Origin: Minisyncoccota bacterium
GTDB taxonomy: Bacteria > Patescibacteriota > Minisyncoccia > Phycocordibacterales > CSBR16-119
NCBI GenBank assembly: GCA_041389065.1
Contig: JAWKSM010000003.1
Coordinates: 17,595 to 81,594, forward strand
Direction of reading: 5' to 3'
Length of the DNA stretch: 64,000 nucleotides
Positions within the stretch are counted from its first letter, which is position 1, and every line of letters starts with the position of its first letter. The notes under the pieces were generated by a model. That model ran no database searches, was not told the DNA's origin, and worked only from the letters and a program-made list of their open reading frames with translations. Of this stretch, positions 18,681 to 60,650 are shown one piece after another. The position numbers and the translations under genes were made by a program.

Positions 18681-18749
18681 AGCAGCTTTTAGCCTTTAGA
18701 AGTTAGCTTTTTAGTAAAAGAGCGCGGGCCTGACCGCGCTCTATATTTA

Positions 18750-18789
18750 ATATCTAAATTCTATCGATATATCGACAGAATTTAGATAT
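18750..18789. repeat. 40-nt near-perfect palindrome with a TCGATATATCGA apex (family member)
   Basis: ATATCTAAATTCTATCGATATATCGACAGAATTTAGATAT, with one mismatched pair. It lies in the ftsA-ftsZ spacer. Confidence 0.9.
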
Positions 18790-18924
18790 GGGCATTTTAG
18801 AAGCCCGGCGCCCCTTTCTCACTAAAAACATACAAAAACAACAAACCTGTCAACCCTTTCCCCTATTTTGCCTTTTCTGGTATTATGTTTGAACACGATT
18901 ATTACTAGAAATTCGAATTCACAT

Positions 18925-20146
18925 ATGGCAAAAATTACAACTGATGTCGAAACATTTGCGAGAATAAAGGTTGTTGGTGTTGGTGGTTCAGGATGCAACG
19001 CGGTAAATCACATGATTGCTTCTAAAGTTAAAGAAGTTGGCTTTATCGTGATGAATACTGATACCCAAGACTTACACAAATCTCTTGCAGAAAGAAAATC
19101 CACTTAGGAAAAATTTAACAAAAGGTTTGGGAGCTGGAATGAATCCAGAGATTGGAAAGAAGGCTGCTGAAGAAACAAAATCAGAAATTCAAGATATCTT
19201 GAAAGGTACTGATATGGTTTTTATCGCTTGTGGTATGGGTGGTGGAACAGGAACAGGTGCAGCGCCAATAGTTGCAAGAGCTGCAAAAGAACAAGGAATC
19301 TTAACTGTTGCCGTTGTTACAAAACCATTTTTTTTCGAAGGGCAACACAGACTTCGACTTGCAGAACAAGGAATCAAAGAACTTGAAAAAGAAGTTGATG
19401 CAATAGTTATAATTCCAAACGACAGACTTTCTGCAATCACAGAAAAAGAAACAACTCTGAAAGACGCATTTGCCATGTGCGACGACATTTTGCGACAAGC
19501 TGTTGAAGGAATTTCAGACCTCATCACAACTCCAGGTATTATCAACGTCGACTTTGCCGATATTAAAGCTATTATGTCAGACGCTGGTTCAGCTCTTATG
19601 GGAATCGGAAGAGCGGCCGGAGACAACAGAGCAGAAGAAGCTGCCCTTCGAGCAATCAACTCACCACTACTTGAAATATCTATCAACGGCGCACGAGGAG
19701 TTTTGTTCTCTGTTGCTGGTGGTGACGATCTTGGACTTCAAGAAGTTCAATCAGCCGCAAAGATTATTACAGAATCAATCGACAAAGATGCTCGTGTTAT
19801 TTTCGGAACAACTCGCGACGAAAAACTAAAGAAAGGAGAAATCCAAATTACAGTTATTGCGACTGGCTTCCCTACTGGAAGTCCTAAAAAAACAATCACT
19901 CAATCTCAAAACGAAGTTAATATCCAAAAACAACTAAGTTCACTGAAAGAAGAAACTAAAGATGAGGTTATAACAAAACCGAAAAAAGGAATTGAAGAAT
20001 TCGAACTGGACGATATAATGCCAGCAAAACATTCAAAAGATCCTATTGAAATTATCGATGGTGACGCCTTCGATGATGACGAAGATGAAGACGACGACAA
20101 AGATGACTGGAGCGCAGTCCCAGCATTCCTTAGAAGGAAGAAATAA
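18925..20146 (+). CDS. ftsZ: cell division protein FtsZ, with two 1-nt frame breaks near 19090-19110
   Basis: [12 protein letters not shown]...MNTD in ORF 18868..19107 and [11 protein letters not shown]...[12 protein letters not shown] in ORF 19085..20146. The middle frame reads KIHLGK between two A-runs. Confidence 0.95.
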
Positions 20147-44834: not shown

Positions 44835-44922
44835 TGCCGGAAGAGAGAATCGAACTCTCACATCTTGCGATACACGATTTTGAGTTGCGTCTACCGCTGT
44901 ATTCAAATTGCGCCATTCCGGC
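44835..44922 (-). pseudogene. degenerate tRNA-Leu(CAA) paralog (D-loop insertion, broken anticodon stem)
   Basis: The 3' 54 nt are identical to the neighbouring tRNA-Leu. The 5' part reads GCCGGAATGGCG-CAATTTGAATACAGC-GGTAGACGCAA, so the 5' strand of the anticodon stem is lost. Confidence 0.7.
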
Positions 44923-58110: not shown

Positions 58111-58182
58111 GGCTGGGTGGCGAAGTGGTAACGCTGCGGTCTGCAAAACCGCCATGCACGGGTTCAATTCCCGTCCCAGCCT
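58111..58182 (+). tRNA. tRNA-Cys (GCA)
   Basis: GGCTGGGTGGCGAAGTGGTAACGC... The anticodon arm is GCGGT-CTGCAAA-ACCGC and the T-arm is ACGGGTTCAATTCCCGT. Confidence 0.9.
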
Positions 58183-58217
58183 CAAAAAGATGTCTTAAAT
58201 AGGATAATAAAAAGAGC

Positions 58218-58249
58218 GCAAATTGTGTCGATATATCGACATAATTTGC
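58218..58249. repeat. 32-nt palindrome with a TCGATATATCGA apex (family member)
   Basis: GCAAATTGTGTCGATATATCGACATAATTTGC has one mismatched pair. Weaker symmetry extends to about 58208-58259 (AAAAAGAG.../...TTCTTTTT). Confidence 0.9.
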
Positions 58250-58274
58250 ATTCTTTTTATTTAAATATTTTATG

Positions 58275-58356
58275 TGCCCAGAGTGGGGGTCGAACCCACA
58301 TCCCTTTCGAGACACGATTTTAAGTCGTGCGCGTATACCAATTCCGCCATCCGGGC
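58275..58356 (-). tRNA. tRNA-Leu (UAA)
   Basis: GCCCGGATGGCGGAATTGGTATACGCG... The anticodon arm is CACGA-CTTAAAA-TCGTG. It has a long variable arm and the T-arm TGGGTTCGACCCCCA. Confidence 0.9.
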
Positions 58357-58408
58357 ATGTAACTATTATTTATTTTTTAATCAACATTTAAATACTATCA
58401 AAAAATAT

Positions 58409-58450
58409 CCCGCCGCGTATACCTCTGTATTTAATTTGCGCCATCCGGTT
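58409..58450 (-). other. tRNA-Leu 5'-half-like remnant with a D-loop insertion
   Basis: The minus strand reads AACCGGATGGCG-CAAATTAAATACAGA-GGTATACGCGGCGGG and then ATATTTTTTG. No anticodon arm or T-arm follows. Confidence 0.6.
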
Positions 58451-58460
58451 ATTTATATTG

Positions 58461-58536
58461 TGGTCCTCTCGGTAGGGATCGAACCTACGACCGTCTCCTT
58501 AAGAGGGAGCTGCTCTACCAACTGAGCTACGAGAGG
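58461..58536 (-). tRNA. tRNA-Lys (CUU), CCA encoded
   Basis: CCTCTCGTAGCTCAGTTGGTAGAGCA... The anticodon loop is CTCTTAA, the T-arm is GTAGGTTCGATCCCTAC, and the 3' end is CGAGAGGACCA. Confidence 0.85.
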
Positions 58537-58566
58537 TAGCTAAAATTACAAAACAAAGTTCTGTTG

Positions 58567-58648
58567 TGCCCAGGAGAGGACTCGAACCTCCACGGATTGC
58601 TCCATTGGTTCCTAAGACCAACGCGGCTACCAATTACGCCACCTGGGC
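58567..58648 (-). tRNA. tRNA-Leu (UAG)
   Basis: GCCCAGGTGGCGTAATTGGTAGCCGCG... The anticodon arm is TTGGT-CTTAGGA-ACCAA. It has a long variable arm and the T-arm GGAGGTTCGAGTCCTCT. Confidence 0.9.
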
Positions 58649-58724: not shown

Positions 58725-58750
58725 AATTCTATCGATATATCGATAGAATT
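58725..58750. repeat. 26-nt perfect palindrome with a TCGATATATCGA apex (family member)
   Basis: AATTCTATCGATATATCGATAGAATT ends 1 nt before the stop codon of the 58752..59165 gene. Confidence 0.95.
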
Positions 58751-58751
58751 T

Positions 58752-59165
58752 TTATCTTTTTTTATCCATATCGTTCAACCAAGCCCACCTCCCTTTTCCA
58801 GCATATGCTGGCATACCTGCAAGCAAAATCTTTTCTAATATTTTAATAACTTTAACATCTTCTTTTTTCTTAGATAAGGCTAAATTTTTAATCATATTAT
58901 ACTTACCCAATGCAATATCTTCTTGAAACCTCAGAACCGTAGATGTGCTAACTTTTAAATTTTTAGAGATACGATATCTTGAAAAACCTTTTGTTATCAA
59001 AATAATAATCGCGAGCCTTTTCGCAAGCATAACAAACTCCGTCTCTGTAAAAAGTTCTTGTATTAAAAAATTCTTGTTATCGGATCTAGTCAAAGCAAAA
59101 AGTAAATCCTTCTTCATCTTTTTCATCAATTTTTCATTTATTTTATTTTTCGAGACATGGGGCAT
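58752..59165 (-). CDS. TrpR/YerC-YecD-like helix-turn-helix regulator
   Basis: ELFTETEFVMLAKRLAIIILITKGFSRYRISKNLKVSTSTVLRF matches the Trp-repressor-like pattern LT..E...la.R..i...L..G.s...I...l.vs..TI.R. Confidence 0.7.
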   Translation of the reverse strand: MPHVSKNKINEKLMKKMKKDLLFALTRSDNKNFLIQELFTETEFVMLAKRLAIIILITKGFSRYRISKNLKVSTSTVLRFQEDIALGKYNMIKNLALSKKKEDVKVIKILEKILLAGMPAYAGKGRWAWLNDMDKKR

Positions 59166-59178
59166 ATTTTTATTATAA

Positions 59179-59210
59179 CCTAATTATGTCGATATATCGA
59201 CATAATTAGG
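59179..59210. repeat. 32-nt perfect palindrome with a TCGATATATCGA apex (family member)
   Basis: CCTAATTATGTCGATATATCGACATAATTAGG begins 14 nt upstream of the regulator's start codon. Confidence 0.95.
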
Positions 59211-59240
59211 ATATTACTTAATACTAAAATTTATTATCTT

Positions 59241-59300
59241 GTCAAAAAAATATATGAAATTGTATCGATATATCGATACAATTTCATATATTTTTTTGAC
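59241..59300. promoter_or_regulatory. 60-nt perfect palindrome with a TCGATATATCGA apex and TTGAC(A) at both ends
   Basis: GTCAAAAAAATATATGAAATTGTATCGATA|TATCGATACAATTTCATATATTTTTTTGAC. With flanking bases, each outer end reads TTGACA facing outward, followed 16-17 nt later by TATAAG (right) or TATTAA (left). Confidence 0.85.
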
Positions 59301-59362
59301 AGTTAACGTATTTATTTTATAAGAAATTTTAATTTAACCCTTTATTTTCAACGTATTTTAAC

Positions 59363-59392
59363 TTGACAAATACGTATATTTTGTGATATAAT
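59363..59392 (+). promoter_or_regulatory. near-consensus sigma-70-type promoter for the SPFH-like operon
   Basis: TTGACA (59363-59368), an 18-nt spacer, then TG-A-TATAAT (59384-59392). Confidence 0.65.
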
Positions 59393-59471: not shown

Positions 59472-60650
59472 ATGGAAGCCCTGCTAACATTAGTTTTTTT
59501 AATACTGCTAGTAGTGGCAGTATTTCTTGCACCTGTAGCCCTTTCAAGGGGTTACATTTTCAGAGGATGGCTTCTAAATGACCATTTTCTGATACAGGAG
59601 AACAACGGAAGCTTCGCCGGAATGAAGTTACGTTCTGATACTCACAGCTTTCGAGGTGGACGTGATCCTGTAAATAAATGGGAAATCGTCGAAAGACCGA
59701 CCAAGATGACATGGTGGGAAAAAACCACTGGAACATTCGAGGTCGGTGTGTGGCCAATAGCGCAAGCAAAGAAGGTCTACGTACCCTTGAACAGGCTTGA
59801 TGTTATTAGACCCACCAACCCGAAAGATGCAATTCAGTACTTCATTGACACGGTCACGGTTGAATACCGAGGTGTGCCCAGATCTCTAAAGCATGCATTC
59901 CAAACCAGGCCTGTTGAAACTATGGGAGACCGAAACGGTCAATGCAAGATAGGAGAAACGACCAACCTTGTTGCCCTGGTTACTGAAATACTGTCAGTAG
60001 ACTTTGAGATCTATAACCCGTATCTCGCAATAATGCGAATACAAGAAGCTGCAGGTGTTGTGAATTTTATGCAACACCTCAATGAAACGCTTCAAAGTGT
60101 TGCTCGGGAGATAACTGCAAAGTTCACTTACGAGCAGATCATTAAGGCTACTGTTGAAGGAAACGATGGCAACGCGGATACGAAGTTTGGCGATAAGTTC
60201 AAGGAAATGGCAAACGGAGCTCTAGCCAAGTACGGTATCAGGATCACAAACGTCGATCTGGTGGACCATTTCCTGGATCCGGAATCTGAACAAGACCTAC
60301 TTGCATCCCAAAGAGAAAAGATGAAGGCGGAAGCTAACATCATTAATGCTGAAGGAAGCAAGAGGGTTAAGGAGCTGAATGCTCATGGAGATGCCGCGGT
60401 GCTACGCACTATCATGAAAGAAGCAAAAGGAGACCCGAATATAGTTCTTGCAGAACTTGAAAGGCGTGGTAGAACCGACGCTGCAAGATTTGCAGGAGAG
60501 AAGTTTCAAGGTGAATTCCTAACGCTGAGCTTTGGCGGACCAAACTCTGGGCAACCAGGTCCAACGCCAGCAGTAACGGTCGGCGCTGTTAGCCCAAAAG
60601 AAAAAAAGGGTGATCAAAACAAGCAACAAGAAAAGAAAAAGAGATCATGA
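59472..60650 (+). CDS. SPFH/band-7-like membrane protein (GC-rich)
   Basis: N-terminal TM. The middle LVALVTEILSVDFEIYNPY...ITAKFTYEQIIK...AKYGIRITNVDLVD...ASQREKMKAEANIINAEG resembles an SPFH core plus a coiled coil. The tail is rich in Gly, Pro and Lys. Confidence 0.55.
   Translation: MEALLTLVFLILLVVAVFLAPVALSRGYIFRGWLLNDHFLIQENNGSFAGMKLRSDTHSFRGGRDPVNKWEIVERPTKMTWWEKTTGTFEVGVWPIAQAKKVYVPLNRLDVIRPTNPKDAIQYFIDTVTVEYRGVPRSLKHAFQTRPVETMGDRNGQCKIGETTNLVALVTEILSVDFEIYNPYLAIMRIQEAAGVVNFMQHLNETLQSVAREITAKFTYEQIIKATVEGNDGNADTKFGDKFKEMANGALAKYGIRITNVDLVDHFLDPESEQDLLASQREKMKAEANIINAEGSKRVKELNAHGDAAVLRTIMKEAKGDPNIVLAELERRGRTDAARFAGEKFQGEFLTLSFGGPNSGQPGPTPAVTVGAVSPKEKKGDQNKQQEKKKRS

Follow-up and report, generated by a model that had tools for sequence, protein, structure and literature searches.

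The closest described relatives of the system examined here are TrpR and HisR (YerC), whose operators are 20-bp palindromes with lineage-specific motifs (PMC9413887). The TrpR operator has the consensus TGTAcTnGTnnACnAgTACA and the proteobacterial HisR operator the consensus TGTAnTArnnnnyTnTTACA; about half of the hisR genes are autoregulated through a site in front of their own gene, and TrpR contacts DNA through Arg69, Ile79, Ala80, Thr81, Thr83 and Arg84 (PMC9413887). The present analysis concerns a 64-kb stretch of DNA from a Minisyncoccota bacterium (64,000 nucleotides of contig JAWKSM010000003.1; hereafter the window), in which a gene for a 137-residue helix-turn-helix (HTH) protein is bracketed by long palindromes that share the core TCGATATATCGA. 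The central 20-mer of the window site, TGTATCGATATATCGATACA, has both the length and the TGTA...TACA ends of the TrpR and HisR operators.

With a probability of roughly 0.8, these palindromes are the cognate DNA sites of the TrpR-family protein encoded at 58752–59165. The main evidence for this reading, all of it drawn from sequence, is the covariation between the recognition helix of the protein and the half-site of its palindromes, together with the conserved placement of the palindromes at the ends of the gene. Non-randomness, placement, family membership and helix/half-site covariation are established at the level of sequence and its comparison. The gene and the five palindromes of the window are as follows:

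58752–59165, minus strand: TrpR-family (PF01371) regulator gene, 137 aa, assigned from Pfam, homologues, profile and fold
58725–58750, no strand: 3' site, a 26-nt perfect palindrome with its 20-bp core at 58728–58747 (TCTATCGATATATCGATAGA)
59179–59210, no strand: putative proximal operator, a 32-nt perfect palindrome with its 20-bp core at 59185–59204 (TATGTCGATATATCGACATA)
59240–59301, no strand: distal upstream site, a 62-nt perfect palindrome with its 20-bp core at 59261–59280 (TGTATCGATATATCGATACA)
58218–58249, no strand: tRNA-Cys/tRNA-Leu site, a 32-nt palindrome with 1 mismatch, between the convergent tRNA-Cys (plus strand) and tRNA-Leu(taa) (minus strand)
18750–18789, no strand: ftsA–ftsZ site, a 40-nt palindrome with one A/C mismatch adjoining the core

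The regulator and the palindromes of the window

The first-pass annotation of the window had proposed a TrpR-like regulator, and this identity is upheld by a Pfam Trp_repressor match above the gathering score (30.6 bits, cut-off 27; E 3.6e-7) and by a predicted TrpR fold. PF01371 is also carried by all 57 of the 57 homologues retrieved through a word index, whose few named sources are Patescibacteria, Saccharimonadales and Giovannonibacteria, with one from Xanthomonadales. The family alignment (A1) displays an invariant MPHVS N terminus, the motif LLTxTExxMLAKRLAII, a C-terminal GxGRW and a second HTH helix of the form V-S-x-x-T-V-x-R, which in the window protein reads K71-V-S-T74-S75-T76-V-L78-R79. 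Compared as a profile with the protein data bank (PDB), this alignment retrieves the YerC/HisR-type 'putative Trp repressors' 3frw, 3kor and 3g1c (E ~1e-8 to 1e-6) and E. coli TrpR (E 0.006–0.02). An hhalign alignment to E. coli TrpR (84% probability) pairs the recognition helix with G-A-G-I79-A80-T81-I-T83-R84 of the repressor.

An AF2 model of the regulator (predicted local distance difference score, pLDDT, 81; predicted template-modelling score, pTM, 0.70) presents a TrpR-like all-helical fold in which the HTH is formed by helices D and E. The 19 best Foldseek matches of this predicted model in the PDB are all E. coli TrpR, with probabilities up to 0.99 and target-normalised template-modelling (TM) scores of 0.54–0.68; the accompanying E-values are weak (0.1–1), a consequence of modelling one chain of an intertwined dimer. 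The protein reaches only 17.2 bits with NCBIfam TIGR02531 (yecD_yerC), under the cut-off of 42.2, and therefore falls into a distinct subfamily of the TrpR family. An exhaustive HMMER search yielded ~1,700 cluster representatives (50% identity) with E ≤ 1e-10, and the 150 best of them are mostly 128–157 aa long (full range 115–195). Only HTH families match the 137-aa protein, with no HUH/Y1, DDE or recombinase catalytic domain, and a look-up of its exact sequence gave no match. By sequence and predicted fold, the regulator is thus a member of a large TrpR subfamily whose named members are Patescibacteria of the Candidate Phyla Radiation (CPR). A literature search returned nothing on CGATATATCG as a motif and nothing linking Saccharibacteria or Patescibacteria with a Trp repressor.

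The window contains exactly five copies of the core TCGATATATCGA (at 18764, 58228, 58732, 59189 and 59265), all in intergenic DNA and each at the centre of a longer palindrome. The core is absent from 100 dinucleotide-preserving shuffles of the window (0 expected versus 5 observed; GC content ~36%), and a scan that tolerates up to two mismatches adds only two matches, which is chance level. With a position weight matrix (PWM) built from 13 distinct Saccharibacteria-type sites, the five copies score 39–41 bits, the next best position 3.2 and the best position of the shuffles 10.2 bits. The number of copies given by the first-pass annotation, including those at 18750 and 58218, is borne out, and the core exceeds the frequency expected from composition.

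Its description of the palindromes themselves needs some correction. Of the three perfect palindromes reported around the gene, of 26, 32 and 60 nt, the lengths of the first two stand and the third is in fact 62 nt long. Self-complementarity, which had been ascribed to every copy, is perfect in these three, whereas the copies at 18750–18789 and 58218–58249 each carry one mismatch. The statement that the arms differ completely outside the 12-nt core does not survive: all five copies conform to the 26-bp consensus AATTnTr-TCGATATATCGA-yAnAATT, sequence becomes copy-specific only beyond about ±13 from the palindrome centre, and the recognised unit would be a dyad of 20–26 bp.

The 3' site begins 1 nt past the regulator stop codon and lies ~75 nt before tRNA-Leu(tag), the proximal palindrome starts 13–14 nt upstream of the regulator ATG, and the distal palindrome starts 75 nt upstream of it, between the regulator and a divergent SPFH gene. 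The outer ends of the distal palindrome (TGTCA...TGACA) create −35-like TTGACA hexamers in both directions. As single strands, all five copies form hairpins that are far more stable than those of shuffled sequences (z −6 to −12), the most extreme being the distal palindrome (DNA hairpin of −28.6 kcal/mol, z −12). At the gathering score, Rfam 15 identifies only tRNAs in the window. Association of the sites with an origin or terminus was rejected, GC skew having no turning point across the window.

Conservation of the module and covariation with the recognition helix

A metagenome scan with the family alignment gave 80 loci, 68 of them non-redundant, in which the regulators are 35–67% identical to that of the window and the GC content ranges from 29 to 57%. 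In nearly all of the 68 loci the regulator gene lies between palindromes centred on ATATAT or a close variant, with the centre of the upstream palindrome 9–46 nt before the ATG and that of the downstream palindrome 2–93 nt past the stop codon. Of 66 loci, 47 have a perfect palindrome (arms of at least 6) no more than 150 nt upstream of the gene, and 44 have one at each end; the same distance past the stop codon contains one in 46 of 68 loci. Where a perfect upstream palindrome was not counted, an imperfect copy occupies the same place in all 18 loci inspected, and locus L113 has a perfect one at −17. Site density is 205-fold higher at gene ends (104 sites in 20 kb) than in the flanks (9 in 358 kb). 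A second upstream site is also found in L068, L070, L071, L103, L107 and L129.

Copies within one genome share their 20-bp sequence, which differs between lineages (20-mers TATACCGATATATCGGTATA, TACTACGATATATCGTAGTA, TCATACGATATATCGTATGA, TCTTACGATATATCGTAAGA, TGGTATGATATATCATACCA, TGGTACAATATATTGTACCA, TACTACAGTATACTGTAGTA and TTAATACAGCGCTGTATTAA); a GC-rich Kaiserbacteria genome (L012) has the exact core of the window 19 nt before the ATG of its homologue. In every lineage variant (ATATAT, GTATAC, AGCGCT, ATCGAT) the dyad axis passes through the exact centre, a symmetry required by a two-fold symmetric protein on duplex DNA and not by the loop of an RNA hairpin. At L052, the 3' element has kept its stem and its core has decayed. 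The best explanation of this distribution is that the site–gene–site module is ancestral to a large CPR subfamily.

Loci were sorted by the two residues equivalent to TrpR Ile79/Ala80, which are T74/S75 in the window protein, and their half-sites are distributed as follows:

Pro-Ser: ACGATA, in 22 of 23 loci
Thr/Ile/Leu/Val-Ser: T/C/G-CGATA, never A
Arg/Leu/Pro/His-Gln: ATGATA, in 9 of 9
Pro-Thr: ACAATA, CCAATA or CCAGTA, in 12 of 13
Pro-Val: ACAGTA, in 1
Glu-Ala and Glu-Ser: TACAGC and TACATC, respectively, in 3

A switch between Ser and Thr is accompanied by the matching switch between CG and CA at least twice inside otherwise similar clades, once in the '...IPQHR...' clade and once in L112 compared with L102, L115 and L131; L098 is an intermediate with a hybrid site. 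Such a pattern is what direct base reading by this helix predicts. It would amount to a simple residue-to-base code, in which Ser goes with CG, Gln with TG and Thr with CA, and Pro is distinguished from non-Pro at the neighbouring base. The code predicts that the substitutions S75Q, S75T and T74P shift the preference of the window protein to TGATATATCA, CAATATATTG and ACGATATATCGT, respectively. Placement in 68 lineages and the tracking of the half-site by the helix strongly support the suggestion, already made in the first-pass annotation, that the palindromes are operators for the adjacent dimeric HTH protein.

By analogy with TrpR, a symmetric dimer is expected, and the recognition helix of each subunit would read one half-site of the 20-bp dyad T-nnnn-CGATA/TATCG-nnnn-A (the slash marks the axis), which in the window takes the form AATTnTrTCGATA/TATCGAyAnAATT. 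Profile, predicted fold, a dyad of ~20 bp and a predicted overlap with the promoter, the hallmarks of the TrpR family that could be tested, are all found at this locus. Members of the family usually bind their DNA with an amino-acid co-repressor, and helix/half-site covariation serves here as the sole surrogate for binding.

A parallel from another phylum bears on the nature of the 20-mer. In a genome scan, a sequence identical to TGTATCGATATATCGATACA occurs once per genome in 34 metagenome-assembled genomes (MAGs), mostly Gastranaerophilales or Melainabacteria (among L001–L051). There it lies 3–6 nt past a canonical cTTGACA-17-TATACT/TATAAT promoter, at about +1 (for example, L003:1445–1740), and is followed by a conserved leader open reading frame (ORF) of 16–18 aa with tandem Trp that ends in ...NLNRNWWRGLV. 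Beyond the leader come alternative pairings (AACTGCCC/GGGTAGTT) with compensatory variants, seen by eye, and a gene for a conserved ~400-aa protein without Pfam family. On a poor alignment of the leader, RNAalifold recovers one 5-bp helix only, and four Melainabacteria loci gave no Rfam match at the gathering score. The layout mirrors the E. coli trp operator with its tandem-Trp attenuator and, on this analogy, independently suggests that the 20-mer is a TrpR-type operator; the cross-phylum link to the CPR regulator is circumstantial. The combination of 20-mer, leader and ~400-aa gene points to an unrecognised tryptophan-controlled function.

Promoter geometry, long arms and competing readings

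The promoter and the genes that adjoin the sites are the following:

59172–59200, minus strand: predicted regulator promoter, with −35 TCGATA at 59200–59195, a 17-nt spacer and −10 TATAAT at 59177–59172
59472–60650, plus strand: SPFH/Band-7 gene, divergent from the regulator, with a strong predicted promoter of its own (TTGACA-18-TATAAT) at 59363–59392
58274–58648, minus strand: tRNA-Leu(taa), tRNA-Lys(ctt) and tRNA-Leu(tag), downstream of the regulator

In a consensus scan, the predicted regulator promoter has 10 of 12 consensus matches, and its −35 element lies inside the proximal operator core. The predicted −10 element ends 6 nt before the ATG, and the regulator mRNA is therefore predicted to be leaderless. 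Among the relatives, 18 of 66 loci have a −10-like hexamer that starts at position −12 relative to the ATG (other offsets mostly have counts of 1–3, the next highest being 8). In the sense direction, 28 −10-like boxes lie 8–30 nt past the 49 5' sites, compared with 7 for the 48 3' sites. The distance of the −10 element from the dyad varies between lineages. Autorepression is the natural reading of this predicted geometry: by covering the −35 element and spacer of the regulator's own, probably leaderless, promoter, the proximal site would allow the protein to repress its own synthesis. The two upstream sites may also act on the SPFH gene as a second target, and the other copies, in the ftsA–ftsZ spacer, in the tRNA cluster and before truB in relatives, would be further targets or roadblocks.

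Some of these other copies are themselves conserved. The tRNA-Cys/tRNA-Leu copy is a quasi-palindrome with A-run and T-run flanks that extend to ~58206–58261, and it resembles a bidirectional intrinsic terminator; its orthologs form perfect palindromes of 58 nt in L132, L133, L134 and L052 and a palindrome of 36 nt in L053. The ftsA–ftsZ site follows a GC-rich terminator hairpin (18719–18741) and precedes the ftsZ ATG (18925) by ~155 nt, and its ortholog in the Saccharibacteria MAG CAZOPP (L044) has identical arms and the identical mismatch. Orthologous site positions are shared by genomes whose regulators are only 60–67% identical. In Saccharibacteria, dispersed copies are intergenic in 17 of 17 cases, and those before truB are promoter-proximal and, with centres 29–37 nt from the ATG, resemble the site of the regulator itself. 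Away from the regulator locus, two copies in the 63-kb remainder of the window and nine in 358 kb of flanks correspond to ~25–30 per Mb, a figure extrapolated from fragments.

The 3' site is conserved as strongly as the 5' site. A role as intrinsic terminator was rejected for the regulator-flanking sites, which have no T-run enrichment: the mean number of T in the next 8 nt is 2.6–3.2, compared with 2.2 expected, and the share of sites followed in the sense direction by at least 5 T is 4% on the 3' side and 12% on the 5' side. Exceptions are the tRNA-Cys/tRNA-Leu copy and its orthologs, with their A and T runs. The same lack of T-runs at the flanking sites agrees with the earlier judgement that neither simple duplication nor an ordinary AT-rich terminator accounts for the palindromes. 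The 3' site may possibly serve as a looping partner, or as a transcriptional roadblock or insulator; any particular role for it, or for the long arms, is assigned a probability much lower than that of the cognate-site reading. Across L052–L131, 24 −10-like hexamers oriented antisense into the regulator lie 8–30 nt from the 48 3' sites, with a peak at 22 nt; they could represent an antisense promoter or the related AT-rich C-terminal codons of one clade.

Several observations weigh against the palindromes being simply the operators of this protein. The covariation counts are inflated, and partly confounded, by shared ancestry, and searches with the CPR-family hidden Markov model and, by phmmer, with E. 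coli TrpR detected no TrpR-family gene up to 8 kb from the Melainabacteria sites. Neither the mismatch search nor the PWM scan detected weak or degenerate sites in the window, and sites of such all-or-none, extra-long and extra-symmetric quality are more typical of a repeat family or structural element. Arms reach at least 13 nt, and up to 31 nt, in 41 of the 69 sites with a complete 20-bp dyad, where 1.4 would be expected. The gene after the 3' site is convergent in 38 of 61 loci, and no −10 peak follows the 48 3' sites in the sense direction, leaving the 3' site without associated promoter; on these two grounds its candidacy as operator of a downstream promoter was dropped. Four of the dispersed Saccharibacteria copies likewise lie between convergent genes. 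The distances between 5' and 3' sites (419–532 bp) show no helical phasing (Rayleigh p 0.17–0.7) and lend no support to looping. Repression, binding as a dimer, the role of the 3' site and all other functional steps are what we infer from these patterns.

The palindromy beyond what protein binding needs is real. Its origin can be followed by comparing the window with L132, in which the flanking DNA is almost identical and the palindromes differ:

Distal upstream site: 62 nt in the window, 28 nt in L132
Proximal operator: 32 nt in the window, 42 nt in L132
3' site: 26 nt in the window, 16 nt in L132
tRNA-Cys site: a quasi-palindrome with three mismatches in the window, a perfect 58-mer in L132

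In the window, the distal site repeats its left flank in inverted orientation at a place where the sequence of L132 is unrelated, ~17 nt of one flank being replaced by an inverted copy of the other. At the proximal site, the left arm in L132 has gained TATAA, mirroring the −10 side, and at the 3' site one substitution accounts for the difference in length. The stretch between the two upstream palindromes is a local rearrangement hot spot: ~45 nt there are heavily diverged (window 59211–59239 compared with L132; alignment A2, columns 198–245), and 32 nt are inserted in the window to the left of the distal palindrome.

Template-switch 'quasipalindrome' mutation, a process reportedly described by Ripley in 1982 and by Dutra and Lovett in 2006, characteristically replaces one flank in a single step with the inverted copy of the opposite flank. 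The window and L132 display both this inverted-flank replacement and the perfecting or decay of quasi-palindromes; the process, inferred from a two-strain comparison, explains the growth of the arms and not the presence of the core. The first-pass annotation had taken the covarying arms as a sign of selection on a hairpin. The excess palindromy it noticed is genuine, whereas selection for a hairpin is not established, since arms that shift by one-step inverted copying cannot on their own be proof of it; mutational template switching fits the arm pattern at least as well as selection. Most likely, extension beyond ~26 bp arises by template switching seeded by the operator dyad, and the long forms may then have been co-opted as hairpins at gene ends. 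The copy at the tRNA junction is a candidate for a functionally kept long form because it is perfect in four divergent genomes.

It is improbable that the elements are primarily nucleic-acid structures, either RNA terminator or stabiliser hairpins or DNA cruciforms, whose apex is conserved by coincidence and to which the HTH protein is irrelevant or secondary. Such structures would fit the stable folding of all five copies and arms that extend far past chance, the consensus scan, in which five hits mark four of the five sites as terminator-like, the terminator-like flanks of the tRNA-Cys/tRNA-Leu copy and its orthologs, the stem kept at L052 despite decay of the core, and the many copies at gene ends and convergent junctions. 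They would not explain a strict central dyad whose sequence is conserved over 12–20 bp and changes with the helix of the adjacent protein. Moreover, T-runs are not enriched at the regulator-flanking palindromes, the predicted transcription start falls downstream of the proximal site, which is therefore outside the regulator mRNA, and the ordinary terminators of the window, such as that at 18719–18741, look different. A broader proposal, which we regard as unlikely, goes beyond an autoregulated repressor to a CPR-wide boundary system. The protein would occupy hairpin-prone perfect palindromes at the two ends of its own gene and at junctions such as convergent tRNAs, ftsA–ftsZ and rnhB–truB, delimiting transcription units in these regulator-poor genomes by roadblock or insulation and possibly by cruciform extrusion; template switching would keep lengthening and re-symmetrising the palindromes, and the operators would behave like a slowly self-renewing repeat family.

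A repeat family proper, akin to repetitive extragenic palindromes (REP) or their hairpin-forming doublets (REPIN), would have the HTH protein mobilise or maintain the repeats in the manner of a REP-associated tyrosine transposase (RAYT). It would account for a single-copy gene placed tightly between cognate hairpin repeats, for additional copies in intergenic DNA and at gene ends, for copies that are all-or-none and near-identical within a genome, and for flanks that turn over fast between strains. This reading is nonetheless very unlikely for a 137-aa TrpR-fold protein without HUH/Y1, DDE or recombinase domain, given the apparently low copy number, the orthologous positions of sites at regulator identities of 60–67% and a conserved locus synteny that argues for vertical inheritance. 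Least credible is ownership of the sites by some other protein, for which NrdR, Xer/dif-type recombinases and restriction-modification (R-M) enzymes are examples, with an only incidental proximity of the TrpR-like gene. NrdR boxes are 16 bp long, with the consensus acaCwAtATaTwGtgt and an ATATAT centre that the central C-ATATAT-G of the palindromes resembles; the core also holds two TCGA/ATCGAT sites (palindromes of the TaqI and ClaI type), and the Melainabacteria MAGs contain one copy per genome. That 44 of 66 lineages have sites on either side of the TrpR-like gene, with a half-site that covaries with its helix, is hard to reconcile with such an owner; the sites examined have no nrd, xer or R-M gene next to them, and a set of five copies in 64 kb that includes three inside 600 bp is not dif-like. 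The NrdR box, dif, parS, attC and R-M sites were all rejected on context and on helix-to-site covariation.

The surroundings of the regulator are conserved to different depths. Synteny with the window is kept in L132, whose regulator is 99% identical, and in L133–L136 (67%), with the shared gene order T4SS-pilin genes, SPFH operon, regulator, tRNAs, rbfA and infB; the SPFH gene retains its position in all of L132–L136. This synteny, the ftsA–ftsZ ortholog in L044 and the GC content of ~36% were read as placing the window in Saccharibacteria, a CPR group. Past the SPFH operon, a run of 5–6 genes matches the type IV secretion system pilin family T4SS_pilin (PF18895), beyond ~61.4 kb in the window, in L132:1–3803 and in L133–L136. 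The tRNA cluster Cys(gca)-Leu(taa)-[regulator]-Lys(ctt)-Leu(tag), at 58111–58648 in the window, is kept in L052, L053, L058, L107 and L117, and in L107 and L117 cluster and regulator are all co-directional, as if the gene stood inside a tRNA operon. A GC-rich clade has instead a divergent tRNA-Ser(gga) ~80–100 nt upstream of the regulator, and a tRNA called by ARAGORN at L104:948–1025, beside a regulator homologue, has an anticodon of four bases (taca).

In one clade (L064, L066, L078, L079, L081, L088 and L090), a perfect or near-perfect DnaA-box of the form TTATCCACA, TATCCACA or TTATCCCCA abuts the left edge of the upstream operator, ~10–20 nt upstream of it. Elsewhere in the window, an Rfam tRNA match of 30.8 bits (threshold 29) at 44835–44922 on the minus strand, beside tRNA-Leu(caa), has no ARAGORN call. 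ftsZ, at 18868–20146, appears to be split into two frames, the N-terminal 79 aa at 18868–19107 and the remainder at 19085–20146, by either a frameshift or a sequencing error around 19085–19107.

Comparison with known systems

CPR bacteria (Patescibacteria) are mostly uncultured and encode very few regulators, and to our knowledge the control of their transcription is almost uncharted. If the palindromes are the cognate sites of the regulator, a widespread small regulator gains its site, a simple residue-to-base code and a conserved gene architecture, and regulons become readable directly from any CPR genome with site and code in hand. The palindromes would also show, in an uncomplicated natural case, operators that exceed in length and perfection what binding needs, with strain data that document palindrome growth.

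Compared with REP/REPIN repeats and their RAYT partners, the window system has in common a single-copy gene that lies between its hairpin-forming palindromes, with other copies intergenic near gene ends. It differs in having no HUH transposase domain, a copy number that is far lower in the DNA covered, a repeat that is dyad-symmetric through its centre, and copies at conserved orthologous positions.

HisR (YerC/YecD) of the Firmicutes comprises the nearest solved relatives by sequence and likewise has lineage-specific 20-bp palindromes (PMC9413887). The CPR motif is unrelated to cacTTTAnnnnnnTAAAgtg, however, and the window protein is longer than HisR. Membership in the YerC/YecD subfamily was rejected, the TIGR02531 cut-off not being reached and neither a cacTTTAnnnnnnTAAAgtg-type motif nor a his context being present; no his or histidine-transporter gene lies beside the sites, whose neighbours are tRNAs, the SPFH gene, ftsZ and truB.

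With E. coli TrpR, the window system shares membership in PF01371, the predicted fold and a 20-bp dyad with TGTA...TACA ends, and it is predicted to resemble the trp/aroH/trpR operators in that the regulator's own promoter is overlapped, as in autoregulation. The residues that covary with DNA in the CPR family map to the TrpR contact residues Ile79/Ala80. In contrast to E. coli TrpR, the inner half-site in the window is TCGATA and not CTAG-based, no trp genes are near the sites in the window, and the protein is ~30 aa longer, with its invariant MPHVS N terminus and GxGRW C-terminal tail. The CPR family further departs from E. coli TrpR in having a conserved second site directly past the stop codon and palindromes that are perfect over as much as 62 nt. 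New relative to these systems are the CPR subfamily itself, its recognition code, the flanking of the gene by sites at both ends, and palindromes that are over-perfect and growing.

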